In this document: piece by piece, positions 3,167-50,530 of the stretch
Numbering within the stretch: position 1 is the stretch's first letter
Layout: each line of letters starts with the position of its first letter
Assembly: GCA_965214095.1 (NCBI GenBank)
Contig: OZ243938.1
Location: 3,232,001 to 3,296,000 of the forward strand
Direction of reading: 5' to 3'
Length of the DNA: 64,000 nucleotides
DNA from: Candidatus Poribacteria bacterium
Lineage (GTDB): Bacteria; Poribacteria; WGA-4E; WGA-3G
Program-made: the position numbers and the translations under genes
The notes under the pieces: model-generated
The model's database searches: none
The model's input: only the letters and a program-made list of their open reading frames with translations
What the model was told of the DNA's origin: nothing

Positions 3167-3226
3167 TTATAAGTACAGACATAAGATTTGGATACATACT
3201 TTTTCGCACACTTTGAAAGGTGACTT

Positions 3227-6200: not shown

Positions 6201-6526
6201 ACAATTCAATCTTTTTATGGGATATTAAAACAAAGACGCATTTCGCAACGCTCAGAGGACATGGACACGTTGTTTGCAGATTGACAGTTTCACCGGATGA
6301 TACTATTCTTGCCAGTGGGGATTCAAATGGTGAAATTCGTTTGTGGAAAATACCTTCAGGTGAACATCTCGTTACATTCCAATCGCCTGGTGGACACATT
6401 AGCAATATTACATTTGCACCTGATAGTAAGAGTTTCGCAAGCACAAATGGTCGTTCAGATGGCGTATCTTCTAATTCCAGAGAAGGTGGAACCATATTCC
6501 TATGGGATGTGCCAAATGTAAAGTAA
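3227..6526 (+). CDS. ECF sigma factor fused to TM helix and WD40 beta-propeller domain
   Basis: sigma2 (AEDITQDTFLKAYQKL..FAGWLYVIA), sigma4 (LPESERTVITLHYFGEMTCEKMSEFLGVSANTIKSRLRRAR), hydrophobic helix, WD40 repeats. Confidence 0.92.
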   Translation: MKDNDVELIHRILEGDDSAFSTLVEKYQKQVHALAWRKIGDFHIAEDITQDTFLKAYQKLTTLKNPQRFAGWLYVIATRCCQAWLRKKQIQTESLEEIDSDALEPEAYSRYVSEEETKVTVAAQRQVVKKLLATLPESERTVITLHYFGEMTCEKMSEFLGVSANTIKSRLRRARNRLKQEEPMIREAITNFKISPTLTENIMQEVSQIKPTPPSASKPLIPWMMGAAGAVLIALMFGIGGQFLARFQKPYSLDAQSERTVELVDAQVVQNLQIESDNRNQTGMRSDLGGRSNGDGENAEQALGDQIDYTRWNLPMGAKRRFGKGILNDMELSPDGRTIASKGYRRTIWLWDAETGEHLRTIKVPNAPATGYQFFKNGTMETTVIPLSQYNPDDDRASIIGFSGFNNKKTKAAYIVSSGPLRSIEFLADSKTLMTQNLDGTVWLWDITSGEQKALFRPELPGLKLDSYISWVNLYPDQWRLAADVYFAPSGEVIYALAAGDRIGTIYIQDGHTGKLLRTLEGQSKIISKKNTIGRIGYGQKTPIQSRLQIPGIKDVFSGKEPRRGVEWITELYFAPDGKTLVSKSRFRNSNRSSYSGAVELWDVKTGELLTRHGLGTDLKFSGDGKALAFMNGVGRGYKGCVIWDLADRRKIAEFAGKVDLKFSRDGKTFTIIRNDSLEMWDIATRRKITSMSTPPELLTVLPDRHAFSGDGTIFAAVNRYGTVNLWETQTDTQLRTLTTNYSTPITTMAFTHDGKSLVSGNASGNIQLWNLNTGKVSSTLTSPENKSIYGLVFAEDNATLVSGGIRNFDKWNITTGKRVNTYTLQWAVAQVFSSTSHYGIGSSGDTVFTWPTTIIALTPKGGKIAKTIWSSHERKTEEDGSEIKVWDIPTSEHLCTVTNESFGQTLAFTSDGNMFATLDEDISYTVDEHTGKKVGDFNKCIVYLWDTYTGKKLAAFDVPKDPENNFNRPDIYAGVFTRDSKTFAAAGSFGDNSIFLWDIKTKTHFATLRGHGHVVCRLTVSPDDTILASGDSNGEIRLWKIPSGEHLVTFQSPGGHISNITFAPDSKSFASTNGRSDGVSSNSREGGTIFLWDVPNVK

Positions 6527-6789
6527 AACAATCCACAAATGATTTGCATCACAATTCTTTTCTTGATGCACACTTCCAACCAATATTTCATTGAACACAA
6601 TCGCAGGAAATCAGGGTTATTTAGGTTTAAGGTTTCGCAATTATTGAGGTTAACGGACTGTTAATTCCCTTCAACGGTCTTATCACTGAATTTATTGGAT
6701 ATATTGATTCTTATCTGAACCAGGATTTTCAGGATTAGTAGATTTTCAGGATTATGAGTGTGGCACTGTATAAAAAACTTGCAGAATTA

Positions 6790-13681: not shown

Positions 13682-13730
13682 TTTAGTTTGATACGTGATT
13701 AATCAGACTATTGATTTCTGGAGACACCTT

Positions 13731-16694
13731 ATGAACAACGACGATGTTGCACTCATCAGACAAATTCTTGATGGTGACGAAATCGCTTTCGCTGAACTTG
13801 TGAAAAAGTATCAAAAACAGGTTCACGTGTTAGCATGGCGAAAGATTGGTGACTTTCATATCGCTGAGGACATTACCCAAGACACCTTCCTGAAAGTGTA
13901 TCAGAGACTACATACCTTGAAAGATCCAAACCTATTTTCTGGGTGGCTCTATGTAATTACGACACGCTTATGTGCTACATGGCTACGGAGAAATAGAATT
14001 CAAACGCAACCTTTGGAGGATGTAGAGGAAACCATGATACAGAGAGATGCATATTCACAACATGTCGCTGATGAACGCGCTAAAACAACCTCTCAGACAC
14101 AACGGGAAGTAGTCAAGAGACTTCTCGCGAAATTGAAAGAGAGTGAACGCACGGTAATGACGCTCTACTACCTCGGTGAAATGACAGTTGAAGAGATTAG
14201 CAAGTTCTTAGGTGTTTCTGCAGGAACGATAAAAAGCCGACTACAACGTGCACGGAATCGTCTACAAAAGGAGGAAACAATGATAAAAGAAGCACTCGAA
14301 CATTTCCAACTCTCACCAAACTTAACTGAAAACATCATGCAAGAAGTTTCACGTCTTAAACCTACGCCTACTGGTAGCAAACCACTTGTACCGTGGGCAA
14401 TTGCTGCTACAAGTGCAGTCTTAATTGTGTTGTTACTTGGCATAGGCAGTCAACAGTTACTCCGTTTTCAGCAACCTTATTCATTAGATGCACAAGCAGA
14501 GATGACGGTTGAACTTGTTGACACACCAATTGTGCTAAATCTTGATACAGAACCAGATGTTAGAAATCGATTGGGCAATTCAAATGCTTTGGGTATCAGT
14601 GAGAACGAAGGTCAGAAACCAGATGAAGTATTATTCACCGCTGCAGAAACCGAAGATGAGGACAAGGTATCCGTTCCTAAACAGCAGTGGATTCAATCTG
14701 AACCTGTCAAAGGAAGTCGGACATATACTTTGCATGTTACCTCTCAAGGAGAACTATATGCTCTTGGTGGAAAAAACCCAAGTATTTTCAAACTATCAGA
14801 CGATGAAACGGGTTGGAAACACATCTTTGACATTATTTTACTTAAGTCCGCTTGGAGTGGAGATTCTCCTATCACAAAGTGGAATGATACCCTCTATTTT
14901 ATACCATCCCATGAACTATTTGCATCAAAGGATGACGGCAAAACTTGGGCTTTAGTCTACTCATGGGAAAGGGAATATGATGCAATCCAATTTATATTTA
15001 CAGATAAAGTATTTTATCTTGCTTTTGACAAAGGTATTTTTCGCTCGTATGATCTTGGCACTACTTGGGAGGAAATAAACGAAGGCTTAATGGGAGATAT
15101 TAGTTCTGTTGTCAAAGTCCAAAACACATTGTTTGCAGGAACCGATAATGGATTCTATCGTCTGGAGGGAGACACTTGGAAACGATTGAAATTCCCTGTT
15201 GAAGTTGGTAGGATACGTTCTCTTACATCTACGGAAGGAAAACTCTATGTTGCAGCAGAATTGAGAGATGATTTATTAGATCCTCACAGAGTATCTCGTG
15301 GACTGCAACGTTCATGGTGGATATTCCGTTCAACCGACTTGGGTAATTCCTGGGATGATATAACCCCAACACATGCCTGGAACATAAAAGGATGGCCTCC
15401 CTTTGTAAAGCTGATTGCCTCTGGTAATACACTGTTAGCCATGGAAAAAGGGATGGTGTGTTCTAATGATAGTGGGGATACATGGCAACCCACGCAATTA
15501 TCAGAGTCAACCCCAACAATAAACGCTGATCTAGACAGGTCAGTAGTGGTAAACGGGAATGTATTTTATGTTACCAGTGCTGAGGATGGACTCCATCGAT
15601 CTCTTGATAAGGGTAAATCATGGGATAAGGTCAATTTTGAAAGGGAAAGTAGAGTTGATGACTTAGTCTTGTTTAAGGGAAAAATTAACGGACAGATAAC
15701 TCCCTCAGTGCTCTACGCGAAATCCGGAGACAGAATCATAAATACCATTGATCAAGGTGAATCTTGGAACGTCGCTCAACTGAAAATACCGATGGCAGTT
15801 CCTGATAAAGAAGAAACTCCAAGTATTACGCATATACTTAAATACGGTGGTGTCATTTATGCCAAAGGTGGAGACCATCTTGGAAGAGGCGAAACCCGTA
15901 TATATCGTATTTCGACTGTAGACGGTATTTCAATAACACCGATTCAAGGTTTGCCAATCTTTGACTCAATGGAACTAAGTAACTTGTTGGATCAAGGTTT
16001 TTCAGCCAAACAGTTGCGAGAGAGTGCATCTGGTGCAACCGAATTCTTTGAACAGTTGGCTAAATGGGATCCTCAACAACTAAATATCTATATGCAATTA
16101 GGGTTCCGGACTGGTGCGTTCGCTATTAGTGCCGATACGTTCTATATGGAATACAACTACAAACTCTTTAGATCGAAAATGGGTGATACAGAATGGCATG
16201 ATACCGGATTGGAAGAATACGAATTACCATTAAAAAGAGCAATGAGAAACCTAAAACTTGCAGTTTCAAATGATACTGTATATGTTGGAAAACGGGATGG
16301 TAATCTCGTTGTATCGCTTGATAGAGGCAATAATTGGGTTGATCTTACCCCCGCACTACCATTTCAAGTAAAAGCATTCAATGAAATCGTGATTGTCGGA
16401 AACACAGTATATGTAGCAACAGATGCAGGTGTCGTTGCATCAGGTCGTGGAAATAATTGGGGTGCTATCACTGATGCAGAAGGAACGAATCTCAGTATGG
16501 ACATACTCACTGCTGATAGCAAGACACTTTATGGTGTTACCAAAGATACTGGCATCTATCGCTTAGAAAATGGCACATGGAATCAGATTGTTTCAGAGAT
16601 GCCAGAAAACATAACATCTCTTGCTGTTGACGGAAATACTTTATATGTGGGAACACAAGATCAAGGTATGCTTCACTTTAATCTCAATAAATAA
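13731..16694 (+). CDS. ECF sigma factor - TM - Asp-box/BNR beta-propeller fusion
   Basis: Start moved from GTG 13695 to ATG 13731 (RBS GGAG; matches paralog 40630 MNNDDVALIR). Confidence 0.92.
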   Translation: MNNDDVALIRQILDGDEIAFAELVKKYQKQVHVLAWRKIGDFHIAEDITQDTFLKVYQRLHTLKDPNLFSGWLYVITTRLCATWLRRNRIQTQPLEDVEETMIQRDAYSQHVADERAKTTSQTQREVVKRLLAKLKESERTVMTLYYLGEMTVEEISKFLGVSAGTIKSRLQRARNRLQKEETMIKEALEHFQLSPNLTENIMQEVSRLKPTPTGSKPLVPWAIAATSAVLIVLLLGIGSQQLLRFQQPYSLDAQAEMTVELVDTPIVLNLDTEPDVRNRLGNSNALGISENEGQKPDEVLFTAAETEDEDKVSVPKQQWIQSEPVKGSRTYTLHVTSQGELYALGGKNPSIFKLSDDETGWKHIFDIILLKSAWSGDSPITKWNDTLYFIPSHELFASKDDGKTWALVYSWEREYDAIQFIFTDKVFYLAFDKGIFRSYDLGTTWEEINEGLMGDISSVVKVQNTLFAGTDNGFYRLEGDTWKRLKFPVEVGRIRSLTSTEGKLYVAAELRDDLLDPHRVSRGLQRSWWIFRSTDLGNSWDDITPTHAWNIKGWPPFVKLIASGNTLLAMEKGMVCSNDSGDTWQPTQLSESTPTINADLDRSVVVNGNVFYVTSAEDGLHRSLDKGKSWDKVNFERESRVDDLVLFKGKINGQITPSVLYAKSGDRIINTIDQGESWNVAQLKIPMAVPDKEETPSITHILKYGGVIYAKGGDHLGRGETRIYRISTVDGISITPIQGLPIFDSMELSNLLDQGFSAKQLRESASGATEFFEQLAKWDPQQLNIYMQLGFRTGAFAISADTFYMEYNYKLFRSKMGDTEWHDTGLEEYELPLKRAMRNLKLAVSNDTVYVGKRDGNLVVSLDRGNNWVDLTPALPFQVKAFNEIVIVGNTVYVATDAGVVASGRGNNWGAITDAEGTNLSMDILTADSKTLYGVTKDTGIYRLENGTWNQIVSEMPENITSLAVDGNTLYVGTQDQGMLHFNLNK

Positions 16695-27115: not shown

Positions 27116-28105
27116 ATGAAACGCACCTATATGTTGTTGGAAATGACACTCCTGTTCAGTTTGTTTCTGCTTACCGTAAATGCTTGGGGAGCTCAGTATA
27201 TTTCTTTCAGTTCTAACCGTACAGGGCAAAGCGATATCTACATCATTGATACAAACGGCAAGAATCTACGCAACCTAACAAACCATCCCGCAGAGGACAC
27301 TGGTGCTACGTGGGCACCGGATGGGCGTTCTTTTGCTTTTGCGTCGAACCGTGATGGAAATTATGAAATCTATATTAAGAAATTCAATGAAGCTCAGGCG
27401 CGTCGGTTGACACACCGTCCGGAAAACGATTTTGATCCTGTCTGGTCAGCTTTTTCTCCTGCCTGGTCACCTGATGGAGATTGGATTGCTTTTGTAGCCA
27501 AGAGAACAGGGGCATCTCATATCTACAAAATAGATATCAACGGTGAGAATCTACAGAGACTGACTAACCAAGGAGGTAGCCCAAACTGGTCTCCAGATGG
27601 AAAATCAATTGCTTTCGATGTTTTTGGGAGCGGTATCTATGTGATGGACGCAGATGGAAAAAATCCTAGACAGATTAAAATCCAGGTAAATATAATCGCT
27701 TTTATTTTCGATCCTGCTTGGTCGCCTGATGGAAAACAGATTGCTTGTGTTCTCGTTAATGAGGGGCAGGATATCTACATCATGGATACAGATGGACAAA
27801 ACGCCCGACGCATTTCACCTCTTGGGACTTGGAGCGTCAGGCCTGCGTGGTCTCCTGATGGTAAGTGGATTGCCTACCAGGCCGACGATGCAGAAAATGC
27901 GAATCCTCAGGGAAACCCGAATGCGGAGCGACACATTTTTATCGTTTCTGTTGAGGGGGATGAGCCACGGCAAATCACACAAGATCCTGTGCGAAATTCT
28001 TCTCCCGCCTGGATCCCCGGAAGTTTTTTCTCCGTTTCTCCGACTGTGAACACCCAGACAACCCTCTGGGGTCGGTTGAAACAAGCTGAACGTATGACGC
28101 AATAA
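27116..28105 (+). CDS. Secreted TolB-like (PD40 repeat) beta-propeller protein with C-terminal TLWGRLK motif
   Basis: Signal peptide, repeated PAWSPDGxxIAF motifs, RBS AGGAGG. Confidence 0.88.
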   Translation: MKRTYMLLEMTLLFSLFLLTVNAWGAQYISFSSNRTGQSDIYIIDTNGKNLRNLTNHPAEDTGATWAPDGRSFAFASNRDGNYEIYIKKFNEAQARRLTHRPENDFDPVWSAFSPAWSPDGDWIAFVAKRTGASHIYKIDINGENLQRLTNQGGSPNWSPDGKSIAFDVFGSGIYVMDADGKNPRQIKIQVNIIAFIFDPAWSPDGKQIACVLVNEGQDIYIMDTDGQNARRISPLGTWSVRPAWSPDGKWIAYQADDAENANPQGNPNAERHIFIVSVEGDEPRQITQDPVRNSSPAWIPGSFFSVSPTVNTQTTLWGRLKQAERMTQ

Positions 28106-31331: not shown

Positions 31332-31553
31332 GGTCAATTAACAGAATCTGACCAACTGCCAGTAATTCCAAGGTTTTACATATATGTGAAGGCTGATTTG
31401 CAAATATCAAACGGCTTAGAGAATACAACGCAGATAGAACCATTGATGAAGTCATAAACATGTATCATAAACTCTAATGTTTACTATAAATAACCCTAGA
31501 CAAATTCAGAAACCCAAACACAAAAATCATCAATGATGAACCGAGGACAACCC

Positions 31554-33896
31554 ATGAAAACAACCATATCCGCCATACTAACATTATTAATACTCATGTT
31601 CCTACCTTATGCAAACGCAGAAACACGCACACAAATCAACCTACCCGAAGGAGCCAAAGCACGCCTTGGTAAAGGCATAACAAAATCCATCACCTTTTCA
31701 CCCGACAACACCCAACTCGCCGTACATACCACAATAGGAATCTGGTTATACGATACAGACACAGCCGAACTACTCAACCTCTTCAGAGTGGATACGCATT
31801 TTTTTCCAGAATCCATAACGTTCAGTCCAGACGGTGACATAATCGCATCAAGCAACCGATTTAATCAAGTCCGACTATGGCACGTCGCCACAGGAGAAAT
31901 CCTACACACCTTTAGAATGCAAGGCGGAGGTTGGGTAACTGATGTTCAGTTCACAACAGACGGCAAAAAAGTCGCAAGCTTCACTAATAGGGAACCTTCT
32001 TTCATCGGTCTATGGGATACTGCCACAGGTAAAGACCTCCACGAACTTATGTATAATGGTCAAATCGTCAGCATAGCGATCAGTTCGGATGGCAAAAAAA
32101 TCGTAGGCACGAGTTCGGACCAGACGACTCAGGTTTGGGATATCATTACGGGAGAACACCTACATAGTCTCAACGGACACAAGGATATCGTGGGTGGTGC
32201 TGCGTTTAGACCGGATGGACACATCATCGCAACCAGAAGTGACGACACAACGATCCGCTTGTGGGACGCAAACACGGGAGAACACCTACACACGCTCCTC
32301 GGACATACGAAGAGGATAGGTGAGATAGTATTCAGTCCCGATGGCAATTACCTCGTCAGTGCGAGTGATGACACAACAATCAGGTTATGGGATCCAGCAA
32401 CAGGTGAACTCCTCCATACCTTTGAAGGACATGCGGATTTTGTCCGCACATTAACCATCAGTTCCGATAACAAAACAATCGTATCTGGAAGTTGGGACAA
32501 GACAGTCCAAACATGGGACATTGAAGCGAGGGAACACCGACAAACCCTCTCGCGCGAGAATTATGTCAATCAAGTTATTATCAGTCCGAATGGAGAAACT
32601 ATCGCAAGTGAGGGTGGTTCGGTTCGTCTCTGGAATGCAGAAACAGGAGAACTCCGTCATAGTATCGGTGGAAACATGTCTTGGATCAATGAAGTCGCTT
32701 TCGGTCCAGACGATAAAACCCTTGCAATTGCAAGTTGGAATTCACACCTCTATCTATTGGATATTGCTACAGGGGAATACATAAACACCTTAATAGGTCA
32801 TGAGTACGTGATCAATTCAGTCGCATATAGTCCTGACGGTAAAACTATAACAACTGGCAGCGACGACAAATCTGTCCGACTATGGAACGCAGAGACGGGT
32901 GAACTGATCAAAACCTTCACAGGACATACCGATGTTGTCTGGTCCGTAGCCTTCAGTTCAGATAGTAAGATACTCGCAAGCGGAGCTTTTGACACATCCA
33001 TCAGGTTATGGGATGTGGAAAAAGGTGAACAGATTGATGTCCTAAGAGGACATAATGATCGTGTCGTTAACATTGCGTTCAGTCCGGATGGTAAGACCCT
33101 CGCAAGTGCCAGCACCGACCACCTCGTTATGCTTTGGGATACTACCACACGGGAGCGTATCCACATACTCAGAGCTCATGATGATAATGTTTTTGAAGTC
33201 GCTTTCAGTCCGGATGGTAAGACCCTCGCAAGTGCCAGCAACGACGAAACTATTCGGCTATGGAACCCAGTCACAGGACAGAATACGCATACCTTTACAG
33301 AAAATTCAAATGAGGTCTATAAAAATCTCTATAGTGTAACGTTCAGCCATGACGGGAGTATCATCGCAGGTGGCACTGCCTACGGCACTATAAGTCTATG
33401 GGATATTGCCACGAAAGAACACCTCCGCACGTTCACTGGACATAATCGCACACCGGTGCGTTGCCTCGCCTTCAGTAGGGACGACAAAACGTTGGCAAGT
33501 AGCGCTTGGGATGGACAAGTCCTACTGTGGAATACCGCGCAATACACGCAATCCTTCGCAGTTGAACCGACTGATAAGCAGCTCACCACTTGGGGCAAGG
33601 TCAAGACAACCGCTGTCTACCAGAACTTTCCCAATCCTTTCAATCCAGAGACGTGGATACCTTATCAACTTGCGACGTCATCGGATGTATCCTTGACAAT
33701 ATACGACGTGCATGGTGTTGTTGTGCGGGATTTCCATTTAAGTCAACAACCAGCGGGTGTGTATAGGGATCGAGATCGTGCGTTGTATTGGGATGGTCGG
33801 AATACCCTTGGCGAAAGGGTCGCGAGCGGTATCTTCTTCTACAAGTTCATTACCGACGACTACACCACCTCCCGCAAAATGTTGATGTTAAAATAG
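31554..33896 (+). CDS. Secreted WD40-repeat protein with C-terminal FlgD-Ig / T9SS type A-like domain
   Basis: Signal peptide (start moved from 31533 to ATG 31554, RBS GAGGA), canonical GH...WD repeats, AVEPTDKQLTTWGKVK, QNFPNPFNPETWIPYQL...WDGRN..GERVASGIFFY. Confidence 0.88.
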   Translation: MKTTISAILTLLILMFLPYANAETRTQINLPEGAKARLGKGITKSITFSPDNTQLAVHTTIGIWLYDTDTAELLNLFRVDTHFFPESITFSPDGDIIASSNRFNQVRLWHVATGEILHTFRMQGGGWVTDVQFTTDGKKVASFTNREPSFIGLWDTATGKDLHELMYNGQIVSIAISSDGKKIVGTSSDQTTQVWDIITGEHLHSLNGHKDIVGGAAFRPDGHIIATRSDDTTIRLWDANTGEHLHTLLGHTKRIGEIVFSPDGNYLVSASDDTTIRLWDPATGELLHTFEGHADFVRTLTISSDNKTIVSGSWDKTVQTWDIEAREHRQTLSRENYVNQVIISPNGETIASEGGSVRLWNAETGELRHSIGGNMSWINEVAFGPDDKTLAIASWNSHLYLLDIATGEYINTLIGHEYVINSVAYSPDGKTITTGSDDKSVRLWNAETGELIKTFTGHTDVVWSVAFSSDSKILASGAFDTSIRLWDVEKGEQIDVLRGHNDRVVNIAFSPDGKTLASASTDHLVMLWDTTTRERIHILRAHDDNVFEVAFSPDGKTLASASNDETIRLWNPVTGQNTHTFTENSNEVYKNLYSVTFSHDGSIIAGGTAYGTISLWDIATKEHLRTFTGHNRTPVRCLAFSRDDKTLASSAWDGQVLLWNTAQYTQSFAVEPTDKQLTTWGKVKTTAVYQNFPNPFNPETWIPYQLATSSDVSLTIYDVHGVVVRDFHLSQQPAGVYRDRDRALYWDGRNTLGERVASGIFFYKFITDDYTTSRKMLMLK

Positions 33897-34230: not shown

Positions 34231-37200
34231 ATGAAAAATGCTGATGTTGAACTCATCCAACGTGTCCTTGATGGTGATGATACTGCGTTTACCGAACTGG
34301 TTAAGAAATACCAGAAATCTGTTCACGCGCTTGCATGGCGGAAGGTTCAAGACTTCCACATTGCAGAGGATATCACACAAGAAACATTCCTAAAGGTATA
34401 TCGGAATCTGTCAACACTGAAGGAACCCCAATCTTTTGCAAGTTGGTTGTATGTCATAGCAACAAACCACTGCAAGACGTGGCTTAGTAAGAAGCAAGTG
34501 TGGACACAATCGTTGGATAACTTCAATAGCGCAGAATTGGAAAAAGCAACCTATTCCAGCTATGTCAGTGCGGAAAACGAGCGGGTATCAGTAGAAGCGC
34601 AGCGTGAAGTTGTCAAAAAGTTACTTGCTAAGTTGCAGGAGAGTGACCGCACGGTCATAACGCTCTATTACCTCGGGGGAATGACGTATGAAGAGATAAG
34701 CAAGTTTTTAGGTGTATCGGTAAGTGCAATCAAGAACCGTCTCTACCGAGCACGCCAGTTTCTAAAGAAGGAGGAACCTATGATAAGAGAAGCTTTAGAG
34801 AATTACCAAATCACTCCAAATCTCACTGAGAACATCATGCAAGAAATATCTCGTCTCAGACCTACACCTTCCACCAGCAAACCCCTCGTGCCGTGGACAG
34901 TTGCTGCTGCAAGTGCAGTCTTAATTGTGTTACTACTTGGCATAGGTAGTCAGAACTTAGTCCATTTCCAACATCCTTATTCATTAGATGCACAAGCAGA
35001 GATGACGGTTGAACTTGTTGACACACCGATTGTGCTAAATATAGATGCAGAACCAGATGTTAGAAATCAATTTGGCAGTATAAATCCTGCTGGTGATAAT
35101 GAGAATGAAGGTCAGAAACCAGATGAAGTTTTGTTGGCTGCCGCAGAAACTGAAACAGATGACAAGGTATCCACATCCAAACAGCAGTGGATTCAATCTG
35201 AACCTATCAAAGGAAGTAGAGTACATAACCTCCATGTTACATCTGAAGGAGAACTCTACGTACTTACTAATACCAATAATGATCCTATCTACAAATTGTC
35301 TGCCAACGGTAACAACTGGTTACATATCTTTGACACTAAGTCATTGGATATTAAAGGTTGGTTAGGAAGTCGCATTGTAAAGTGGAACAATACGTTGTAC
35401 TATGTGCCATCTCATCAACTCTTCGCTATTAATGATGATAGCAAAACGGGTGATTTAATTTACACCTGGGATGGTAACAAATATGTGGAACCCGTTGAAT
35501 TCATTGTAACAGAAGGCACTTTTTATATCGCATTTAGGAATGGAATTTTGCGTTCCGAAGACAATGGTAGAACATGGGAGGAAATTAATGATGGATTAAT
35601 GGATGGAATTAGATCCTTAGTCAAAATCCAAAACACTCTGTTTGTTGGGACAGAAAATGGACTCTACCGTTTAATAGGTGACATCTGGCAACATGTGGAA
35701 TTCGCAGCACCTGTCGGCTGGATCCGTTCAATTGCAGTGACTGAAGATAATCTCTATGTTGCAGCAGACATAAACCGTCGTGCAGTTCCCCTTGAAGAGT
35801 GGTACACCTGGTGGGTATTCCGATCAACTGACATGGGGAACTCGTGGAGAAATATTACACCTAAAAATGCATGGTCTGTAAAGGAGGTCATTCCCTTTGT
35901 TAAACTTATTGCTGTTGGCGAAACACTCTTAATCAGCTGGAGAGATGTTGGTTTAGTACGCTCTACCGATAGTGGAGATACATGGATGCCTGTACAAGAA
36001 CCCAATTCTTACCCCAACATAGGCACTCATACCCCTGCTGTAGCCTTAAATGAACAAACTTTTTATATTGCAAGTGATGATGATGGACTGCATCGTTCCA
36101 TTGACGGTGGTAAGTCGTGGCATGCTATAAACATAGATCGTAAAAGTAAATTTCAGATGGATGACATAATTGCCAATAGAGGATTTGGTAAAGTGGAAAA
36201 CATGCCTACGGCAGTCTATGCGAAAGTTGGAAAAGAAATTGTGAAAACAACCGATAAGGGAAAATTCTGGAATACTGTTCAAATGGAAGAACCAAAGACT
36301 TCACGGGCAACAGTAGAAAGACCTTTTATTACCCAGATAGTCAAATCTGGAGATATTATCTATGCTAAAGGTGGAGATTCCTATGGTGATGGCAGTAGGT
36401 ATTCTTCAGGTGATGGTATTACACGTCTCTACCACATTTCTACAGATGACAATATCCTAAGACGAGTTCCAGACATTCCAATTTTTGATGCTAAACCATT
36501 AAGATTCCATTTGGCGGGAAGAACAACAAACTCTTTTGACTCACCAGAAGAAGAAGAAAAGTTCATAAAACGGATACAAAAAAGTACTGGTGGAGCAACT
36601 CAATTTTTCAAACATTTAGCTAAATGGGATCCAAAACAACCAGATTTCTATATGAAATTGGGGTTTCACGGACCGTTTGCAGTCAGTGCCAATACCTTTT
36701 ATTTGGAATATAACTTCAAACTCTTTCGGTACAAGAAGGGTGAGAGAGAATGGTCCGATACAGGGGTGGAAGAAACCATCGAGTTAACCTTGGATATAGC
36801 AGTGAAAAATCTCAAACTTGCCGTTTCAGGGAACACTGTCTATGTCGGCAAACGGGATGGCACTCTCTTACAGTCATTTGATGCCGGAACCAATTGGATT
36901 GATCTCACACCAGTACTACCATTCCCAGTAAAAGCATTCAAAGATATCGTGATTGTTAATGATACAGTGTATGTAGCAACAGATGCAGGTGTCACCACAT
37001 CAGATCGTGGAAATAATTGGGGTGTTATTACCGATTCAGAAGGCACAAATCTCAATATGGACATACTGACTGCTGATGGTACGATACTTTATGCTGTTTC
37101 CCAAGATACTGGTATCTATCGCTTGGAAAATGATACATGGAATCAGATTGTTTCAGAGATTCCAGAAAACATAACATCTCTCGCTGTCAATGGAAACACA

Positions 37201-37254
37201 TTATTTATTAGCACTGAAAGAAACGGAATGTTCCATTTTACTCTTGATGAATAA
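34231..37254 (+). CDS. ECF sigma factor - TM - Asp-box/BNR beta-propeller fusion
   Basis: Same architecture. Confidence 0.92.
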   Translation: MKNADVELIQRVLDGDDTAFTELVKKYQKSVHALAWRKVQDFHIAEDITQETFLKVYRNLSTLKEPQSFASWLYVIATNHCKTWLSKKQVWTQSLDNFNSAELEKATYSSYVSAENERVSVEAQREVVKKLLAKLQESDRTVITLYYLGGMTYEEISKFLGVSVSAIKNRLYRARQFLKKEEPMIREALENYQITPNLTENIMQEISRLRPTPSTSKPLVPWTVAAASAVLIVLLLGIGSQNLVHFQHPYSLDAQAEMTVELVDTPIVLNIDAEPDVRNQFGSINPAGDNENEGQKPDEVLLAAAETETDDKVSTSKQQWIQSEPIKGSRVHNLHVTSEGELYVLTNTNNDPIYKLSANGNNWLHIFDTKSLDIKGWLGSRIVKWNNTLYYVPSHQLFAINDDSKTGDLIYTWDGNKYVEPVEFIVTEGTFYIAFRNGILRSEDNGRTWEEINDGLMDGIRSLVKIQNTLFVGTENGLYRLIGDIWQHVEFAAPVGWIRSIAVTEDNLYVAADINRRAVPLEEWYTWWVFRSTDMGNSWRNITPKNAWSVKEVIPFVKLIAVGETLLISWRDVGLVRSTDSGDTWMPVQEPNSYPNIGTHTPAVALNEQTFYIASDDDGLHRSIDGGKSWHAINIDRKSKFQMDDIIANRGFGKVENMPTAVYAKVGKEIVKTTDKGKFWNTVQMEEPKTSRATVERPFITQIVKSGDIIYAKGGDSYGDGSRYSSGDGITRLYHISTDDNILRRVPDIPIFDAKPLRFHLAGRTTNSFDSPEEEEKFIKRIQKSTGGATQFFKHLAKWDPKQPDFYMKLGFHGPFAVSANTFYLEYNFKLFRYKKGEREWSDTGVEETIELTLDIAVKNLKLAVSGNTVYVGKRDGTLLQSFDAGTNWIDLTPVLPFPVKAFKDIVIVNDTVYVATDAGVTTSDRGNNWGVITDSEGTNLNMDILTADGTILYAVSQDTGIYRLENDTWNQIVSEIPENITSLAVNGNTLFISTERNGMFHFTLDE

Positions 37255-37336
37255 AATTCATTTTCTGGCCGGTGTCAAACACCGTCAATCTCATCTCTAT
37301 TATCCTTTTCTCCAAATTTCTCTTAATGCAGAATTA

Positions 37337-37365
37337 TGCAACCGTTTTACACCTAATTTGAGGCA
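37337..37365 (+). promoter_or_regulatory. ECF-type promoter with altered -10
   Basis: TGCAACC-N17-AGGCA (sister copy at 50613 has AGTCA). Confidence 0.5.
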
Positions 37366-37417
37366 TAATAGTTTGATATGTGTTTGCTCAAACTTTTGCA
37401 TAATGGAGACACACCTG

Positions 37418-37894
37418 ATGAAAAACGACGGTGCACTTATTAGACAAATACTCAGCGGTGATCAAATCGCTTTCGTTGGACTCGTGAAAAAGTATCAAAA
37501 ACAAGTTCACGTACTAGCATGGCGGAAGATTGGAGATTTCCACATTGCCGAGGACATTACCCAGGATGTCTTTTTGAAAGTATATCAGAAACTTCACACT
37601 CTGAAAGATCCGAATCAGTTTTCTGGGTTGCTCTACGTCGTGACAACTAACCTATGCAATACATGGCTCAGTAAAAATCGGGATCATTACCAGGTATCAG
37701 AAGATATTGAGACAACTATGATAGAAAGAGACGTATATTCCCGACATATAACAGAAGAGCGAGTTAAGACCACTCTTGAAGCACAACGTGAAGTGGTCAA
37801 GAGATTACTTGCTAAGTTGAAAGAAAGTGAACGCACGGTAATGACTCTCCATTATCTCGGCGAGATGACAGTAGAAGAGATTAGCAAGTTCTAA
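37418..37894 (+). pseudogene. Truncated ECF sigma part of a split fusion gene (nonsense in sigma4)
   Basis: ATG 37418 matches paralog 50692; TTA(L) to TAA at 37892-37894; frame continues GVSAGTIKSRLQRAR into 37964; conserved sigma2 W changed to L (FSGLLYV). Confidence 0.85.
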
Positions 37895-37963
37895 GGGGTT
37901 TCTGCTGGAACGATAAAGAGCCGACTTCAACGAGCGCGTAACCGTCTACAGAAGGAGGAAACA

Positions 37964-40264
37964 ATGATTAGAGAAGCACTCAACCATTTTCAAATTTCAC
38001 CAAACCTAACTGAGAACATCATGCAAGAAATATCACGTCTCAAACCTACACCTCCCACCAGCAAACCACTTGTGCCGTGGGCAGTTGCTGGTGCAAGTGC
38101 TATCTTAATATTGTTGATGCTTGGTATAGGCAGCCAGAATTTAGTTCGTTTTCAGCAACCTTATACAATAGATGCACAAGCAGAAACAACAGTTGAACTT
38201 GTTGATGCACCTATTGTGCTAAATCTTGATACGAAACCAGATGTCCGAAATCAATTGGGAAACTCAAATGCGTTGGGTATAAGTGAGAGTGAAGGTCAGA
38301 AACCAGATGAAGTCCTGTTGGCTGCTGCACAGGTGGAAGAAAAAGATGTTTCAGATCCGAAACAACAGTGGAATCTGGCTGTTCCCATAAAAGGGAGTTT
38401 TGTAAGTGGTATGACAATCAATTCTAGTGGTGATATTTTCACTTATAATCATGGACTTATCTTTAAATTATCGTCTGATAAGAAGGAGTGGGAGTACATC
38501 CCCACTGCACATAGACTTAATATCACTCATAGTAAGTCTACACATATGAGACTAAAAGAATGGAACAGTACACTTTATCTCCTTCTAATCGAAAAACTCC
38601 TTACTTCAAAGGATGAAGGTATGACATGGGAACTGCTTTACACCTTCCCAATAGATCGGAATCGTGGACCGTTTGACTTCATAGCATCAGAACAGGCGTT
38701 ATTTGCCATCTTTTCAGACAATACTGTATTCCGTTCTGAAGACAATGGAAATACATGGAATATAGTCACCAATGAATTCCCAAAAGCACTAAACACTTTA
38801 GTAGTAGTGCAAGACATCATGTTTGCTGGAACACGTACAGGATTGTATCGTAAGAACATAGATGGATGGGAACACTTGAAATTTCCAACATCCAGGAATA
38901 TAGAAGTAACTTCAATCTTATCAATTAAGGATCAACTCTATGCTACTGGGTTACCAAACCCTTATTCGGAAAAGGATCAAAATCGGTGGATTTTTCGTTC
39001 AATTGACCTCGGTGATTCATGGGATGACATAACACCTACGATCACTTGGTCGAAAAACAGATGGCCACCAGGAATTACTCTCATTGCGACTGATGATACA
39101 CTCTTGGTAATGGAAAAGGGCATGGTTCTTTCAAAGGATAGTGGAGATACATGGTTATCACCACCATTAACAGGAACTACTCCGACAATGCAAAGGTTTA
39201 GTCCATTTGTTGTGACTGATGATTGTGTCATTTATGTTGGTAGTCCGGAGGATGGTCTATTCCGTTCAACGGATAAAGGCAATTCATGGAAAGCAATCAA
39301 TGTTCAACCAGTTGTTCCACGAATACATAACCTAATCGCATATAAGAGAAGTGACAATACACAGAACACACCATCGGACCTCTATGGTCTTCACTTAGGA
39401 GAGATAGCAAATACTACAAACAAAGGCAAATCTTGGCAAGTCGTTCGAATGGGAAAAGAAATGACAGATAATCCTAACATAATAGGAGTACCTCCAACTA
39501 TCAGTAAAATTGTCAAACACGGTGATATTCTCTATGCAAGAGGTACGGATCTCGTCATGGGAGACATGCTTATCTATCGCGTATCCCGTGATGATAGGAC
39601 GCTTGTACCGATACAAGGGATGCCTGTTCTTAACGCGAAGAGTAATCTTAGAAAAGACCGTATTCAAGAGGGATTAGAGGGAGTCTGCGCTGTTGACAAC
39701 GACACATTCTATATTGAATATAACTATAAACTATTCCGTTGGAAGCAAGGTGATACGGATTGGTTCGACACTGGACTGGAAGAAACCTTACATTTACCTA
39801 AGGACATTTTAAGGAGAACTCTTAAACTGGCGGTTTCAGGGAACACTGTCTATGTCGGTAAACGCGATGGACATTTGTTCGTATCGTATGATTCCGGAGA
39901 AAACTGGATAGACCTCACACCAGCTCTGCCATTCACCGTTAAGTCCTTCAAAGGCATTGTGACTGCTGGTTCCACCGTATATGTCGCAACAGACACAGGT
40001 ATCATCACATCTGATAATGGAAGAAATTGGACTACTATCACAGATACGGATGGAATCAATCTCAAAATCGACTACATGGCTATTGATGACACAACACTCT
40101 ATGGAGTTACAAAGGATACTGGTATCTATCGATTGGAAAATGGCACATGGAATCAGATTGTGTCAGAGATACCAGAGAGAATAACATCTCTCGCTGTTGA
40201 TGGAAACACCTTATATGTAGGAACACAGGATCAAGGTATGCTTCACTATAATCTCAGTGAATAA
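37964..40264 (+). CDS. Linker - TM - Asp-box beta-propeller (3' part of split gene, intact 766 aa)
   Basis: Open frame preceded by AAGGAGG-N5-ATG. Confidence 0.7.
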   Translation: MIREALNHFQISPNLTENIMQEISRLKPTPPTSKPLVPWAVAGASAILILLMLGIGSQNLVRFQQPYTIDAQAETTVELVDAPIVLNLDTKPDVRNQLGNSNALGISESEGQKPDEVLLAAAQVEEKDVSDPKQQWNLAVPIKGSFVSGMTINSSGDIFTYNHGLIFKLSSDKKEWEYIPTAHRLNITHSKSTHMRLKEWNSTLYLLLIEKLLTSKDEGMTWELLYTFPIDRNRGPFDFIASEQALFAIFSDNTVFRSEDNGNTWNIVTNEFPKALNTLVVVQDIMFAGTRTGLYRKNIDGWEHLKFPTSRNIEVTSILSIKDQLYATGLPNPYSEKDQNRWIFRSIDLGDSWDDITPTITWSKNRWPPGITLIATDDTLLVMEKGMVLSKDSGDTWLSPPLTGTTPTMQRFSPFVVTDDCVIYVGSPEDGLFRSTDKGNSWKAINVQPVVPRIHNLIAYKRSDNTQNTPSDLYGLHLGEIANTTNKGKSWQVVRMGKEMTDNPNIIGVPPTISKIVKHGDILYARGTDLVMGDMLIYRVSRDDRTLVPIQGMPVLNAKSNLRKDRIQEGLEGVCAVDNDTFYIEYNYKLFRWKQGDTDWFDTGLEETLHLPKDILRRTLKLAVSGNTVYVGKRDGHLFVSYDSGENWIDLTPALPFTVKSFKGIVTAGSTVYVATDTGIITSDNGRNWTTITDTDGINLKIDYMAIDDTTLYGVTKDTGIYRLENGTWNQIVSEIPERITSLAVDGNTLYVGTQDQGMLHYNLSE

Positions 40265-46891: not shown

Positions 46892-46989
46892 TATACCATA
46901 AGTGAGCGGTACCGAATGCCTCTACTCCATCCAATTATTTTAAATATCCTCACTAAACGTCGTATCCTCTGACAACATAGAACTTATAT

Positions 46990-47087
46990 GAATATGAAAA
47001 GAGAGGATAATGGTATAATATCTGAACATTATACTCTCTTTTCATATTCTTTAAAAACTTGAGACTTTTTCTCCGCAAGTCGCGTCA
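46990..47087 (+). promoter_or_regulatory. 23-bp inverted repeat enclosing TATAAT, followed by ECF-type promoter
   Basis: Arms 46990-47012/47027-47049 (22/23); TTGAGAC-N17-CGTCA at 47059-47087. Confidence 0.6.
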
Positions 47088-47133
47088 CTATACGTCAATG
47101 TGAACGATTAAGTCCCTTTGTTAGAGGTATCTA

Positions 47134-47440
47134 GTCATAGTACCCAAACCTAAAGGGTTGGGCTTGTGCTTCATAGACGTTGCGTTTCACCAAAAGGATC
47201 ATCCGTCTTATTTCGTCTCCACAGTGGGTTCTAAGCAACCTCACTTGCTCTAAAAGAGCAACTTATTATTTGAGAGTGTGTTTTTCGGACTGGGTTTTTT
47301 ACCTCCCATGTCCCTACCACTCAATTGTTATGTGTCTATGGTAGTGAGAGCGTATATGTTTTTCAGTTTTATGCTCCGCAACATATAGCACCAAAGACTG
47401 CGGACAACCTCACACACGACTGCGTGTGATTGAACTTTCC
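47134..47440 (-). ncRNA. Putative TnpB omegaRNA-like RNA (scaffold at the 3' end, guide from flanking DNA)
   Basis: Minus strand CTGTGGAGAC..TAAGAC..GCAACGTCTATGAAGCACAAGCCCAACCCTTTAGGTTTGGGTACTATGAC resembles tnpB right ends; downstream of an internal promoter; no tnpB ORF. Confidence 0.55.
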
Positions 47441-47446
47441 GAATAT

Positions 47447-47475
47447 ATTTTAGCAAGTTTGACATTTATTGTCAA
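47447..47475 (-). promoter_or_regulatory. sigma70-type promoter inside the mini-element
   Basis: Minus strand TTGACA-N17-TAAAAT with TG extension. Confidence 0.65.
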
Positions 47476-47539
47476 GAAAAACATAGGAGCGGGCAGGAGA
47501 CCCAAACCTAAAGGATTGGGTCTCCTGCCCGAAGATTAG

Positions 47540-50530
47540 ATGAAAAATGCTGATGTTGAACTCATCCAACGTGTCCTTGATGGCGATGATACTGCGTTCT
47601 CAGAGCTTGTGAGAAATTATAAGAAGTCAGTCCATGCGCTTGCATGGCGAAAAGTTCAAGACTTCCACATCGCAGAGGACATCACACAGGAAACATTTCT
47701 GAAGGCATATCAGAAGTTGTCAACTTTGAATGAATCACAGTCATTTGCAAGTTGGCTCTATGTGATAGCGGCGAATGAATGTAAGGCATGGCTTCGTCGG
47801 AAACGTATACGGACACAGTCTTTGGAAGATATCAATGATGCAGAGTTGGAACAAGCGACCTATTCCAACTATGTCATTAATGAAAAAGAACGGACATCAG
47901 TAGAAGCGCAGCGCGAAGTTGTCAAGAAGTTGCTTGCGAAGCTGCAGGAGAGTGACCGTACGGTCATAACGCTCTATTACCTCGGGGGAATGACGTATGA
48001 AGAAATCAGCAGATTCTTAGGTGTATCGGTCAGTGCGATCAAGAACCGCCTCTACCGAGCGCGCCAGTTTCTAAAAAAGGAGGAACCCATGATAAGAGAA
48101 GTTTTAGAGAATTACCAAATCACACCCAATTTCACTGAGAACATCATGCAAGAAATATCACGTCTCAAACCTACACCTTCCACCAGCAAACCGCTTGTGC
48201 CGTGGGCAATTGCTGCTACAAGTACAATCTTAATTATGTTGATGCTTGGCATAGGCAGCCAACAATTAGTGCGTTTTCAGCAACCTTTTACATTAGATGC
48301 GCAAGCAGATATGACGGTTGAACTTGTTGACACACCAATTGTGCTGAATCTGGATTCTGTGCCAGATGTTAGAAATAGACTGGGCAGTATAAATCCTGCT
48401 GGTGATAGTGAAAATGAAGGTCAGAAACCAGATGAAGTCCTGTTAGCTGCCGCAGAAACCGAGGATGAGGACAAGGTATCCACACCTAAACAGCAGTGGA
48501 TTCAGTCTGAACCTATTAAAGGTAGTCAAGTATATAGTCTAAAAGGCACCACGCAAGGTGATCTGTATGTTCTTGTGAGTAATAGAGGAACTCCAAACAT
48601 CCTCAAGTTAACATCGGATGGAAATACTTGGCAATCTATAGATGGTTACCCGTCAGGTACAGTTTGGGGATTTAACGCAGCTATGGTAGAGTGGAATAAT
48701 ACTTTTTACATTATACCATCTAACGAGCTCTTTGCATCAGAAGATGAAGGAAAGACTTGGAATTCACTTTACACGTGGTCTAAAGACCACAATGTGATTG
48801 ATCTTCTACCCATGGATAATGCATTCTACGCTGCATTTCAAGAAGGTATTTATAAGTCTGATGATTTAGGAAAGACGTGGAAAGCAATACAAGATGAGCA
48901 AATCAAGTATATCGAATCTCTAGTAAGAATCCAAAACACATTGTTTGTTGAAACATCCACCAAACTTTACCGATTGGATGACGATGGTTTGAACTCATTG
49001 GAATTTCCAGTACCTGTTAGGAGCATTATTTCAGTTGCAGGAACTGATGGAAAGCTTTATGTTGAAGTAACGTCTAATTCAGATCGTAGTTGGTGGATAT
49101 TCCGTTCAACTGATCTTGGGGATTCGTGGATAGATATAACACCGACAAACGCTTGGTCTATAGAAGGACAACCACCTTATTGCAAATTGATTGCATCTGA
49201 AGAAACCCTGTTGGTAATGGAACAGGGAATGGTTCGCTCAACTGATGGAGGGAATACATGGCTGCCTCCACAGTTACCAGGAACCACTCCTTCAATGAGT
49301 AGTTCATATAATGCAGTTGCTGTAAATCAAGACACCTTTTATGTTGGAAGTAGTGATGGCTTACATCATTCAACTAATAAGGGAAAATCGTGGGATTTAG
49401 TGAGAGTCGCTCCAGATATGAGAAGACGTGTAATGTTTAATCTAATCGCAACCAAAAATAGTGTCGATAGTCTAAACTTGATGCCGACACTCTATGGGAT
49501 AGTTGAAGTCGGAGAGATAACAAAAACTAATGATGATGGCAAGTCATGGGAGACTGTTCGTGTTGATACACCTATGTCAACATCAAACAGAGGAAACGTA
49601 CCAACAATAACCCAGATTGTTAAATCAGGCGATGATGTCTACGTTAAAGGAGGATCTCTTGGTGAGGGAAAGGTAGGTCATTACATAGTATCTGACAACG
49701 GGAACACTTTAGTCCCAATTCAGGACATGCCAACTTTCAGTTCAACTGAATTAAGGATGCGTCTATTTACTTCTAAAGATCTTACGATAGGAGAGTTGCA
49801 AGAAGATTTCTCTGGTGCAAAAAATTTCTTCCAACAGATGCTTAATTCAGCACCTCAACAACTAATTAAGCTTGAAGAACTTGGACTTCGTGGCCCTTTT
49901 ACTGTCAGTGGTGACACATTCTATACGGAATACAACCTTAAACTCTTTAGATGGAATCCTGGAGATACAGAATGGTATGACACTGGTCAAGAAGACATTG
50001 GTGACTTTCCCTTGGATGAATTGTTCATAAGCACATTTAAGTCACACTTCATTGTTCCCAAACTTGCAGCTTATGACAACACAGTTTACTACGGAAAGCG
50101 GAATGGACAATTGGTAGTATCGTTTGATAAAGGTAATAATTGGGTTGATCTCACTCCAGGTCTACCCTATAAGGTAAAAACATATAATAGTATCGTGTTT
50201 GTGGGTTCCACAGTATATGTGGCAACAAATGCAGGTATCATTACATCAGATGATGGGAGAACGTGGAAAACTGTCACTGATTCTGGTAGATCTAATATCA
50301 TCATGGCGCATTTAGCTGTGGACGGTACAACACTCTATGGCATTACTAACACAACGAGTATCTACCGTTTAAATAGTGAAAGTGGTGCTTGGGAACAGGT
50401 TGTCACTAAGATACCAGAAATTAAAAATCTCAAAATAAGGGATTTCGTTACATCTTTCGCGGTTGCTGGAAGGACGTTGTATGTAAGTACTGAAGTAAAC
50501 GGAATGTTCCATTTTAACCTTGATGAATAA
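47540..50530 (+). CDS. ECF sigma factor - TM - Asp-box/BNR beta-propeller fusion (RBS displaced by insertion)
   Basis: Intact 996-aa ORF; sigma4 GVSVSAIKNRLYRAR. Confidence 0.9.
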   Translation: MKNADVELIQRVLDGDDTAFSELVRNYKKSVHALAWRKVQDFHIAEDITQETFLKAYQKLSTLNESQSFASWLYVIAANECKAWLRRKRIRTQSLEDINDAELEQATYSNYVINEKERTSVEAQREVVKKLLAKLQESDRTVITLYYLGGMTYEEISRFLGVSVSAIKNRLYRARQFLKKEEPMIREVLENYQITPNFTENIMQEISRLKPTPSTSKPLVPWAIAATSTILIMLMLGIGSQQLVRFQQPFTLDAQADMTVELVDTPIVLNLDSVPDVRNRLGSINPAGDSENEGQKPDEVLLAAAETEDEDKVSTPKQQWIQSEPIKGSQVYSLKGTTQGDLYVLVSNRGTPNILKLTSDGNTWQSIDGYPSGTVWGFNAAMVEWNNTFYIIPSNELFASEDEGKTWNSLYTWSKDHNVIDLLPMDNAFYAAFQEGIYKSDDLGKTWKAIQDEQIKYIESLVRIQNTLFVETSTKLYRLDDDGLNSLEFPVPVRSIISVAGTDGKLYVEVTSNSDRSWWIFRSTDLGDSWIDITPTNAWSIEGQPPYCKLIASEETLLVMEQGMVRSTDGGNTWLPPQLPGTTPSMSSSYNAVAVNQDTFYVGSSDGLHHSTNKGKSWDLVRVAPDMRRRVMFNLIATKNSVDSLNLMPTLYGIVEVGEITKTNDDGKSWETVRVDTPMSTSNRGNVPTITQIVKSGDDVYVKGGSLGEGKVGHYIVSDNGNTLVPIQDMPTFSSTELRMRLFTSKDLTIGELQEDFSGAKNFFQQMLNSAPQQLIKLEELGLRGPFTVSGDTFYTEYNLKLFRWNPGDTEWYDTGQEDIGDFPLDELFISTFKSHFIVPKLAAYDNTVYYGKRNGQLVVSFDKGNNWVDLTPGLPYKVKTYNSIVFVGSTVYVATNAGIITSDDGRTWKTVTDSGRSNIIMAHLAVDGTTLYGITNTTSIYRLNSESGAWEQVVTKIPEIKNLKIRDFVTSFAVAGRTLYVSTEVNGMFHFNLDE

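Follow-up and report, generated by a model that had tools for sequence, protein, structure and literature searches.

A protein-less IS200/IS605-family element separates ribosome-binding site and start codon in a gene of a Poribacteria sigma-factor array

The 64,000-nucleotide (nt) stretch of Candidatus Poribacteria DNA analyzed here (assembly GCA_965214095.1, contig OZ243938.1, positions 3,232,001 to 3,296,000), referred to as the window and numbered from its first letter, carries a 406-nt insertion at 47134-47539, immediately in front of the ATG at 47540 of one member of a tandem gene array. We interpret this segment, with good confidence, as a protein-less, non-autonomous element of the IS200/IS605 family (a palindrome-associated transposable element, PATE) from a lineage that is common in Poribacteria. 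On this interpretation, a Y1 transposase (TnpA) acting in trans put the element at a TTCAT target, where it is a tolerated passenger that likely lowers expression of the gene behind it.

A 406-nt insertion displaces the ribosome-binding site of gene 47540

To the left of the insertion lies a Shine-Dalgarno-like AGAGG (47123-47127) followed by 6 nt (47128-47133), and to its right lies the ATG at 47540. In the paralogs 23813, 28302, and 34231, CAGAGG, 6 nt, the ATG, and an identical stretch of the first 36 coding bases follow one another directly. By this comparison, the plus-strand motif and spacer at 47123-47133 represent the displaced ribosome-binding site of gene 47540, now 412 nt from its ATG. 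An ungapped register test agrees with this assignment. Compared with the 50 nt that precede the ATG of paralog 28302, the 50 nt ending at 47133 agree at 31/50 positions, with each of eight shifts from -4 to +4 scoring at most 20/50, whereas the 50 nt presently upstream of the ATG at 47540 match that leader at just 12/50. This test was used instead of a MAFFT alignment of the 47540 leader with the three paralogs, in which the gap was wrongly placed.

The segment is bounded by two copies of a 20-nt hairpin core in the same orientation (47143-47162 and 47501-47520), 358 nt apart and each with one internal mismatch. With up to three mismatches allowed, the core occurs twice in the window against 0.01 expected, and none of 100 shuffles gave two occurrences. 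The second copy lies within a longer stem at 47490-47531, whose 20-nt arms are 95% complementary (16 contiguous pairs, one mismatch, and 2 further pairs) and whose end is separated from the ATG by 8 nt. The preliminary description of this DNA had placed an element exactly between the ribosome-binding site and the ATG, at the paralogs' 6-nt spacing, with a perfect 16-bp stem 8 nt before the ATG and the open reading frame (ORF) intact behind it. The register test and the three paralogs bear out the placement, the count of 16 contiguous pairs shows the stem to be accurately described, and the ORF is indeed open from 47540 to 50530 (996 aa).

The ends are shared with tnpB- and isrB-like elements of Poribacteria

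A scan for the hairpin core, run on the contigs of one genome per species, gave at least 117 loci; almost all belong to metagenome-assembled genomes (MAGs) of Candidatus Poribacteria. The flanks at hand measured 3 kb for 80 of the 117 listed loci and only 300 nt for the other 37. Among the matches listed, pairs of cores 1339 to 1376 nt apart enclose ORFs of 387 to 393 aa with OrfB_IS605 and Cas12f1-like_TNB domains, that is, TnpB. These tnpB genes run against the core as it is read on the plus strand. The top strand of the element therefore corresponds to the minus strand of the window, so that the left end (LE) is next to the ATG and the right end (RE) next to the ribosome-binding site.

Read in this direction, positions 1-80 of the element are 85 to 87% identical to the full-length tnpB copies L001, L058, and L076, and positions 300-406 are 80% identical to them. 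The LE (47478-47539, minus strand) consists of a 19-nt spacer (47521-47539), the imperfect core hairpin (47501-47520), and the extended stem (47490-47531), followed by CTCCT. The RE (47134-47162, minus strand) consists of the other core hairpin and nine terminal nucleotides (47134-47142) ending in TGAC, in line with the REs of 15 relatives. The register with the paralogs, the identity of the ends, and the orientation of tnpB together delimit the whole element as 47134-47539 on the minus strand, and the end homology (80 to 87%) together with an RE covariance model (48.1 bits) upholds the earlier assignment to an IS200/IS605 mini-element.

The same ends enclose other cargo as well. At two loci (L003 1989-3008, plus strand; L046 921-1946, minus strand), the LE and RE flank a 340-aa gene with an RRXRR domain and no HNH domain (IsrB-like), encoded on the bottom strand of the element. 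This gene begins approximately 190 nt inside the RE and has tblastn relatives in 10 of the 117 listed loci. One further locus, L020, is a mini-element of 223 nt. When the 623 ORFs of at least 100 aa from the 117 listed loci were clustered, the recurring clusters were TnpB-like and IsrB-like only. A blastx search of the window element against two TnpB proteins gave no significant match (best E = 0.057 over 17 aa). Since no TnpB coding remnant is found this way, the element is not a simple deletion derivative of a tnpB copy that kept part of its coding sequence.

Two side observations concern the distribution and composition of these loci. At L040 (2981-5676), a DDE-type transposase gene (401 aa) is nested in a tnpB element, where the LE lies on one side of it and another copy of the promoter region on the other. 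Outside Poribacteria, the exact 20-nt core was found in a Chlamydiia MAG (L103), in Desulfobacterales (L056 and L086), in Thermoplasmata (L102), and in Dokdonia (L117); a collection of this size should give a few chance matches to a 20-nt core. In the Chlamydiia locus, the core lies 19 nt from TTCAT, and the complement of TTCAT starts an ORF with a beginning that by eye resembles a signal peptide.

Two hairpins and a structured RNA in front of a gene, with no transposase in the window, could also suggest a regulatory leader, and the segment might accordingly be a native structured leader, a repeat of the repetitive extragenic palindromic (REP) or bacterial interspersed mosaic element (BIME) type, or an assembly artefact. 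We regard a non-transposon origin of any of these kinds as extremely improbable. The paralogs lack the segment, its ends are homologous to those of tnpB and isrB elements, and the same type of element occurs at many unrelated sites. Rfam returned no match at the gathering threshold over the whole window, and the 13 sub-threshold matches within 46900-47700 are all noise of the miRNA/snoRNA hairpin type, so that no family is assigned at either the gathering or the E-value threshold. REP and BIME sequences are short extragenic palindromes, typically arranged as inverted pairs and linked to a TnpA-REP gene. An origin as REP/BIME with its associated transposase (RAYT) was rejected on the direct, not inverted, orientation of the two hairpins, 358 nt apart, and on the homology of the ends to tnpB and isrB elements.

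The target is TTCAT and insertion leaves no duplication

The target of the element, or transposon-adjacent motif (TAM), is the minus-strand TTCAT at 47540-47544, which lies outside the element and is the complement of ATGAA, the start codon with the next 2 nt. Because TTCAT complements the ATGAA that opens gene 47540, the element has come to lie precisely between ribosome-binding site and ATG. This target had been proposed from the window copy, and it is confirmed by a set of 20 independent LEs of the same subfamily (19 loci and the window). TCAT adjoins all 20 left-end junctions, TTCAT adjoins 14, and TTTCAT adjoins 10; no junction departs from the target core. At the opposite side, the REs of 15 relatives finish in GAC, 8 to 9 nt past the hairpin, and the RE hairpins of L018 and L078 carry compensatory changes. 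In the window, the distance from the cleavage point to the core hairpin is 19 nt at the LE (47521-47539) and 9 nt at the RE (47134-47142).

A natural filled/empty pair was found for a second position in the window. In contig CAXXTN010000004.1, a full-length tnpB copy (L098/L099) has a left flank of 282 nt that corresponds to window positions 3508-3227 at 96.5% identity and a right flank that corresponds to 3226-3044 at 92.4%. The window therefore holds the empty site of this copy at 3226|3227 (minus strand), with neither duplication nor loss of bases. Insertion without target site duplication, as the preliminary description had stated, is thus seen directly at this pair, and the tally of flanks that it had called for gave TCAT at each of the 20 left-end junctions.

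Across subfamilies, the final target base appears by eye to vary in step with the base immediately before the hairpin (T with A, C with G). In sister subfamilies with the targets TTTAC and TTTAT, the bases 5' of the hairpin likewise read by eye AAAG and AAAA. The window LE departs from its relatives in the fold of this region. Its fold as single-stranded DNA (ssDNA) has -22 kcal/mol, and the perfect stem takes up the five bases just 5' of the core hairpin, which correspond to the guide position of IS608. In typical LEs (L058 and L066), the fold is approximately -11 kcal/mol and the same five bases lie in a 5x5 internal loop. The guide-position bases are located in such a loop in 17 of the 20 LEs and in a perfect stem in three (window, L109, and L078). 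The internal loop was turned into a stem by a change in the 3' arm in the window (47490-47531) and in L109, and by a change in the 5' arm in L078. This suggests correction or homogenization within the palindrome rather than function as the source of the three perfect stems.

Most scorable copies are located at gene starts

To score the association with gene starts, a junction was counted if the CAT of the target supplied the ATG of an ORF that spans 90 codons or more or stays open to the end of the locus. Nineteen junctions were scorable in this way; L091, with a flank of only 26 nt, was left out. The target CAT is a gene start in 12 of the 19 (L001, L003, L017, L020, L040, L052, L066, L078, L088, L098, L109, and the window). 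L100, which opens a 72-aa ORF, was scored as a miss, and six junctions are clear non-starts (L018, L027, L041, L046, L058, and L076). Pfam matches begin between residues 4 and 31 of the protein encoded at the element in four cases, namely, hydantoinase B (L040), PEPCK (L020), GFO/IDH/MocA (L066), and PolyA_pol (L109); no Pfam match was obtained for the genes at L001, L017, L088, and L100. At the reconstructed empty sites of L001, L020, L052, L066, and the window, a purine-rich motif is located 5 to 8 nt before the ATG. A second member of the array was struck in the same manner, as the full-length copy L098 adjoins the ATG of the gene 3227 ortholog in the related genome.

Whether this exceeds expectation depends on the background chosen. 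In 495 kb of control sequence, 17.9% of 4133 ATGA sites are followed by 90 or more open codons; the share that forms the first start of an ORF of this length is 3.6%. Among the sites that spare crude gene calls, starts make up 12.1% for ATGA, 16.9% for ATGAA, and 27.5% for ATGAAA. The 12 starts among 19 junctions give p = 2e-7 against 12.1% and p = 0.001 against 27.5%, and the 7 starts among 10 TTTCAT sites give p = 0.006 against 27.5%. If the gene calling overstates intergenic DNA twofold (expected share, ~45%), the excess is left with p = 0.09. Accessibility of the target as ssDNA did not differ significantly between 14 reconstructed empty sites, with a mean unpaired probability of 0.61, and 500 background TCAT sites, with 0.56 (Mann-Whitney p = 0.24), and unstructured start regions are therefore not supported as the cause of the start bias.

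Much of the bias toward starts can be explained by the motif together with the loss of gene-disrupting copies, and the excess beyond motif and selection is modest and control dependent. The preliminary description had predicted that a TTCAT target would bias insertions toward ATGAA gene starts, other array members included. The 12 of 19 starts and the array copy L098 agree with this prediction, within the limits set by the modest excess.

The interior probably encodes an omega-RNA-like transcript

Within the element, a sigma-70-type promoter-like site at 47447-47475 (minus strand) reads toward the RE. It consists of TTGACA, a 17-nt spacer, and TAAAAT, with TG before the second hexamer (11/12 matches), and its TTGACA hexamer lies within the LE segment that is conserved with the tnpB elements. 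Downstream, the minus-strand region 47134-47440 is read as a structured, non-coding, omega-RNA-like scaffold that ends at the RE. A covariance model built from the last ~125 nt of nine full-length copies matches the 3' 132 nt of the element (47134-47265, minus strand) with 48.1 bits (E of approximately 2e-12), and it scores L082 with 91 bits and the L020 mini-element with 24 bits. One stem shows compensatory changes: GAGCAG...CTGCTAC, as found in the full-length copies, is replaced by GAGACG...CGTCTAT in the window and by GAGTAG...CTACGAT in L082. In a two-sequence alignment of the window element with L082, 8 of 60 predicted pairs are changed on both sides, and many G-U pairs exist on the minus strand only. 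Judged from these sequence features, the element probably carries an omega-RNA-like gene with a promoter of its own.

Transcription from the near-consensus internal promoter would carry the structured RNA across the RE into the flank. By the TnpB omega-RNA architecture described by Meers et al. (PMC10055086, excerpted), the first ~16 to 20 nt beyond the RE (47114-47133, minus strand) would form the predicted guide portion, antisense to the displaced ribosome-binding site. Such a guide (~47133-47114) would match the restored, empty junction next to TTCAT. An omega-RNA-like gene agrees with the same text, according to which omega-RNAs are frequently encoded by PATEs and employed in trans (PMC10055086). 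Cross-targeting of the corresponding site of paralog 28302 was considered and rejected, as the ~11 of 20 bases that match by eye were judged too few.

A transposase would have to be supplied in trans

Several observations weigh against parts of the interpretation given here. No tnpA, tnpB, or isrB gene was found by tblastn in the 64-kb window (best E, 0.4), and no tnpA with a TTCAT-type LE is present among the 117 loci listed. The two loci that do carry tnpA, L024 and L045, differ from the window subfamily in their outer stem and in their targets (TTTAT and TTTAC). The middle of the element (top-strand positions ~100-295) has a single relative, L082, at 73% identity, so that its omega-RNA status rests on two sequences. 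Finally, the lineage is also inserted at the starts of the intact genes of the PEPCK, hydantoinase B, GFO/IDH/MocA, and PolyA_pol families, which hints that expression of the gene behind an insertion need not be abolished.

The two tnpA loci emerged from a search for TnpA among the listed loci, in which an H-x-H filter on 172 candidates left five matches, two of them real. Both encode a Y1_Tnp protein of 149 to 153 aa (E of approximately 1e-37), which sits directly inside an LE that shares the core hairpin and the first 9 nt with the window element; in L024, a 421-aa TnpB follows downstream. A tnpA with the same end hairpins, which the preliminary description had suggested looking for, is thus found in relatives as far as the core hairpin is concerned, but not for the outer stem and the target. 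In IS608, the target is determined by the guide bases of the LE and not by the protein (PMC3201880, excerpted). Mobilization in trans by a TnpA of the L024/L045 type is plausible for this reason, and an enzyme of this kind, acting on ssDNA, may have placed the window element 3' of the minus-strand TTCAT.

The insertion most likely lowers expression of gene 47540

The effect of the insertion would be confined to paralog 47540. Its expression is most likely lowered, because the Shine-Dalgarno site has been moved by 406 nt, a hairpin of -22 kcal/mol (as DNA) lies near the ATG, the sense strand has a weak terminator-like hairpin, and a strong promoter points in the convergent direction. In the RNA fold computed for 47440-47600, the hairpin is the dominant feature (-57 kcal/mol; z = -7). 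The terminator-like site inside the element (47245-47261, plus strand) is a hairpin of 7 pairs, three of them G-C, followed by a T-run; it is weak, with one such site found against 0.6 expected. No plus-strand promoter-like site was found within the element. Precise excision would in principle restore the gene.

The preliminary description saw here a potential excision-controlled ON switch, in which the gene is silent as long as the element is present and TnpA-mediated precise excision activates it; this would be a form of phase variation among the sigma-factor paralogs. Precise, scar-less excision is part of the known chemistry of the family (PMC3201880). The displaced Shine-Dalgarno site, the hairpin, the terminator-like site, and the convergent promoter would account for the silent state, the ORF 47540-50530 has stayed intact, and a second array member was struck at the same position in another genome. 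By the IS608 model, however, cleavage of the window copy should be hindered. Pairing with the cleavage site requires that the IS608 guide bases be unpaired beforehand (PMC3201880), whereas the putative guide bases of the window LE are locked in the perfect stem, as in only 3 of the 20 LEs (-22 versus approximately -11 kcal/mol). In addition, a cognate TnpB would be expected to cut the restored ON allele, because the predicted guide matches the restored junction; re-cutting of this kind is what an omega-RNA-like gene predicts by extension of PMC10055086. The window has no tnpA, and only 2 of the 117 listed loci have one. Loss of an array member also seems to be tolerated, because another paralog carries a nonsense codon. 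In this member (37418-40264), probably a pseudogene, an in-frame TAA (37892-37894) within sigma region 4 takes the place of the TTA (Leu) codon of paralog 50692 and divides the gene into the ORFs 37190-37894 and 37964-40264. Taken together, we consider a switch of this type very unlikely.

An expression-compatible insertion is the opposite alternative. The LE supplies a Shine-Dalgarno-like AGGAG (47485-47489) 5' of the stem, and the folded hairpin would bring it to ~8 to 9 nt from the ATG, so that translation continues. Hairpin-bridged ribosome-binding sites are known, for example, from gene 38 of phage T4. By eye, AGGAG or AGGAA adjoins the outer stem in 15 of 18 LEs, and the stem lies 7 to 8 nt from the ATG in these copies. 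The struck genes include intact genes of central metabolism. Continued translation through the AGGAG of the LE would explain the survival of the lineage at gene starts, where 12 of 19 copies are found against the 12 to 28% expected if starts were merely as tolerated as intergenic sites. On the other side, GAGGG and AAGGG adjoin the stem, again by eye, in sister subfamilies whose targets are not starts. The purine motif is probably a feature of the LE and not an adaptation, because subfamilies with other targets have similar motifs. Transcription, moreover, must still cross the element against a strong promoter. Continued expression through the element is unlikely on balance, although it is the better of the two alternatives to a passenger insertion that lowers expression.

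The simplest reading is accordingly that of a tolerated passenger insertion in a redundant gene array, and nothing points to regulated or frequent excision. The lineage often strikes such sites because its target equals the commonest gene start. A far-reaching version of the opposite view would make TTCAT-targeting IS200/IS605 elements of Poribacteria start-codon seekers that enter the gap between ribosome-binding site and ATGA(A) start in excess of what survival accounts for (12 of 19 scorable copies; two members of this array in two genomes), acting as mobile, precisely removable 5'-leader cassettes with a guide RNA antisense to the displaced ribosome-binding site and creating heritable but reversible on/off heterogeneity in sensor-gene arrays. 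We hold this version to be quite improbable.

Relation to known elements

Reversible inactivation of genes by precise excision of an insertion sequence (IS) is familiar from reversion assays with ISDra2 and from the phase variation caused by IS256 and IS492. In those cases the insertion blocks a gene and its precise loss restores it; the window copy would be a parallel only if two such states existed there. Its closest mechanistic model is IS608 of Helicobacter pylori. Both have subterminal imperfect hairpins in direct orientation, and both IS608 and the window lineage insert 3' of a short target without duplication. IS608 is cleaved at a distance of 19 nt from the LE hairpin, on its 5' side, and of ~10 nt from the RE hairpin, on its 3' side (PMC3201880); the corresponding distances in the window are 19 and 9 nt. 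The IS608 guide rule, as given in the same source (PMC3201880), is matched by eye in the TTTAC and TTTAT sister subfamilies (AAAG and AAAA). Unlike IS608, the window copy has neither tnpA nor tnpB, its target is TTCAT instead of TTAC, and its LE has an added outer stem, perfect in this copy, that buries the guide position.

The ISGst elements and PATEs of Geobacillus stearothermophilus (Meers et al. 2023, PMC10055086) are similar in that the same LE and RE are common to tnpB-type, iscB-type, and protein-less elements. The ISGst TAMs TTCAT and TTTAT and the transposon-encoded motif (TEM) TTCAC (PMC10055086) belong to the same motif set as that of the Poribacteria lineage, and tnpA is rare relative to tnpB in ISGst (PMC10055086) as it is in Poribacteria. 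The two differ in phylum and in sequence, and, unlike in ISGst, the TTCAT-type ends of Poribacteria carry tnpB as well as an HNH-less IsrB-like gene. Taken by itself, the window element is an ordinary PATE, and both its family and its target motif are known. The family, its chemistry, omega-RNA-encoding PATEs, ends shared by tnpB and iscB elements, and the motifs TTCAT, TTTAT, and TTCAC have already been described for G. stearothermophilus, as far as the consulted text of PMC10055086 covers them. An association with start codons is not mentioned there, the term "start codon" having no occurrence in the PMC main text (PMC10055086). Term searches of open-access full texts returned no paper linking Poribacteria and TnpB and no description of a start-codon-adjacent insertion of the IS605 type.

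The natural filled/empty pair and the 20 independent junctions define the ends and the target of a Poribacteria IS200/IS605 lineage whose variants carry tnpB, an IsrB-like gene, or a guide-RNA-like gene alone. With a target complementary to ATGAA, the majority of its surviving copies are located precisely at gene starts. Should such insertions be compatible with expression or reversible, they would offer a natural system for the interplay of a single-strand transposon and its guide RNA with translation-start regions. If they are not, they exemplify how a target motif and purifying selection shape the distribution of a transposon.

The interrupted gene belongs to a sigma-factor/sensor array

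Gene 47540 (47540-50530, plus strand, intact, 996 aa) encodes an extracytoplasmic function (ECF) sigma-70 domain, a membrane segment, and a BNR/Sortilin-type propeller, as indicated by Sigma70_r2/r4 and propeller domain matches. It is one of ~17 tandem plus-strand paralogs of ~1000 aa each, located at window positions 687-53826. The members of this one-protein sigma/sensor array fuse an ECF sigma-70 domain to a membrane segment and a beta-propeller, either BNR/Sortilin-like or WD40. Propeller-only genes lie among them, at 27116-28105 (PD40) and 31533-33896 (WD40). For the member listed with a GTG start at 13695, this start is probably wrong, and alignment with the other paralogs favors the ATG at 13731.

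Upstream of the element, an invariant block (AAAAACTTGAGACT ... GTCAC) is common to paralogs 23813, 28302, 34231, and 47540. Its copy at 47053-47088 (plus strand) is intact and, given the columns that are invariant in the four paralogs (14-27 and others), is probably the promoter of gene 47540 itself. We take this block and its equivalents to resemble an ECF-type -35/-10 pair, which would mean that each fusion protein drives its own gene. Between the stop codon of the upstream paralog (46891) and this promoter-like block, an inverted repeat occupies 46990-47049, with 96% complementarity between its 23-nt arms. This repeat, probably a terminator, gave sub-threshold miRNA-family noise in Rfam.

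Within the window, GC skew tracks the gene strand and is uninformative on the direction of replication. In CAXXTN010000004.1, the region preceding the gene 3227 ortholog runs into sequence that is found at window positions 6494-6612 (L099 173-291 versus window 6612-6494), and the array has therefore been rearranged between the two genomes.

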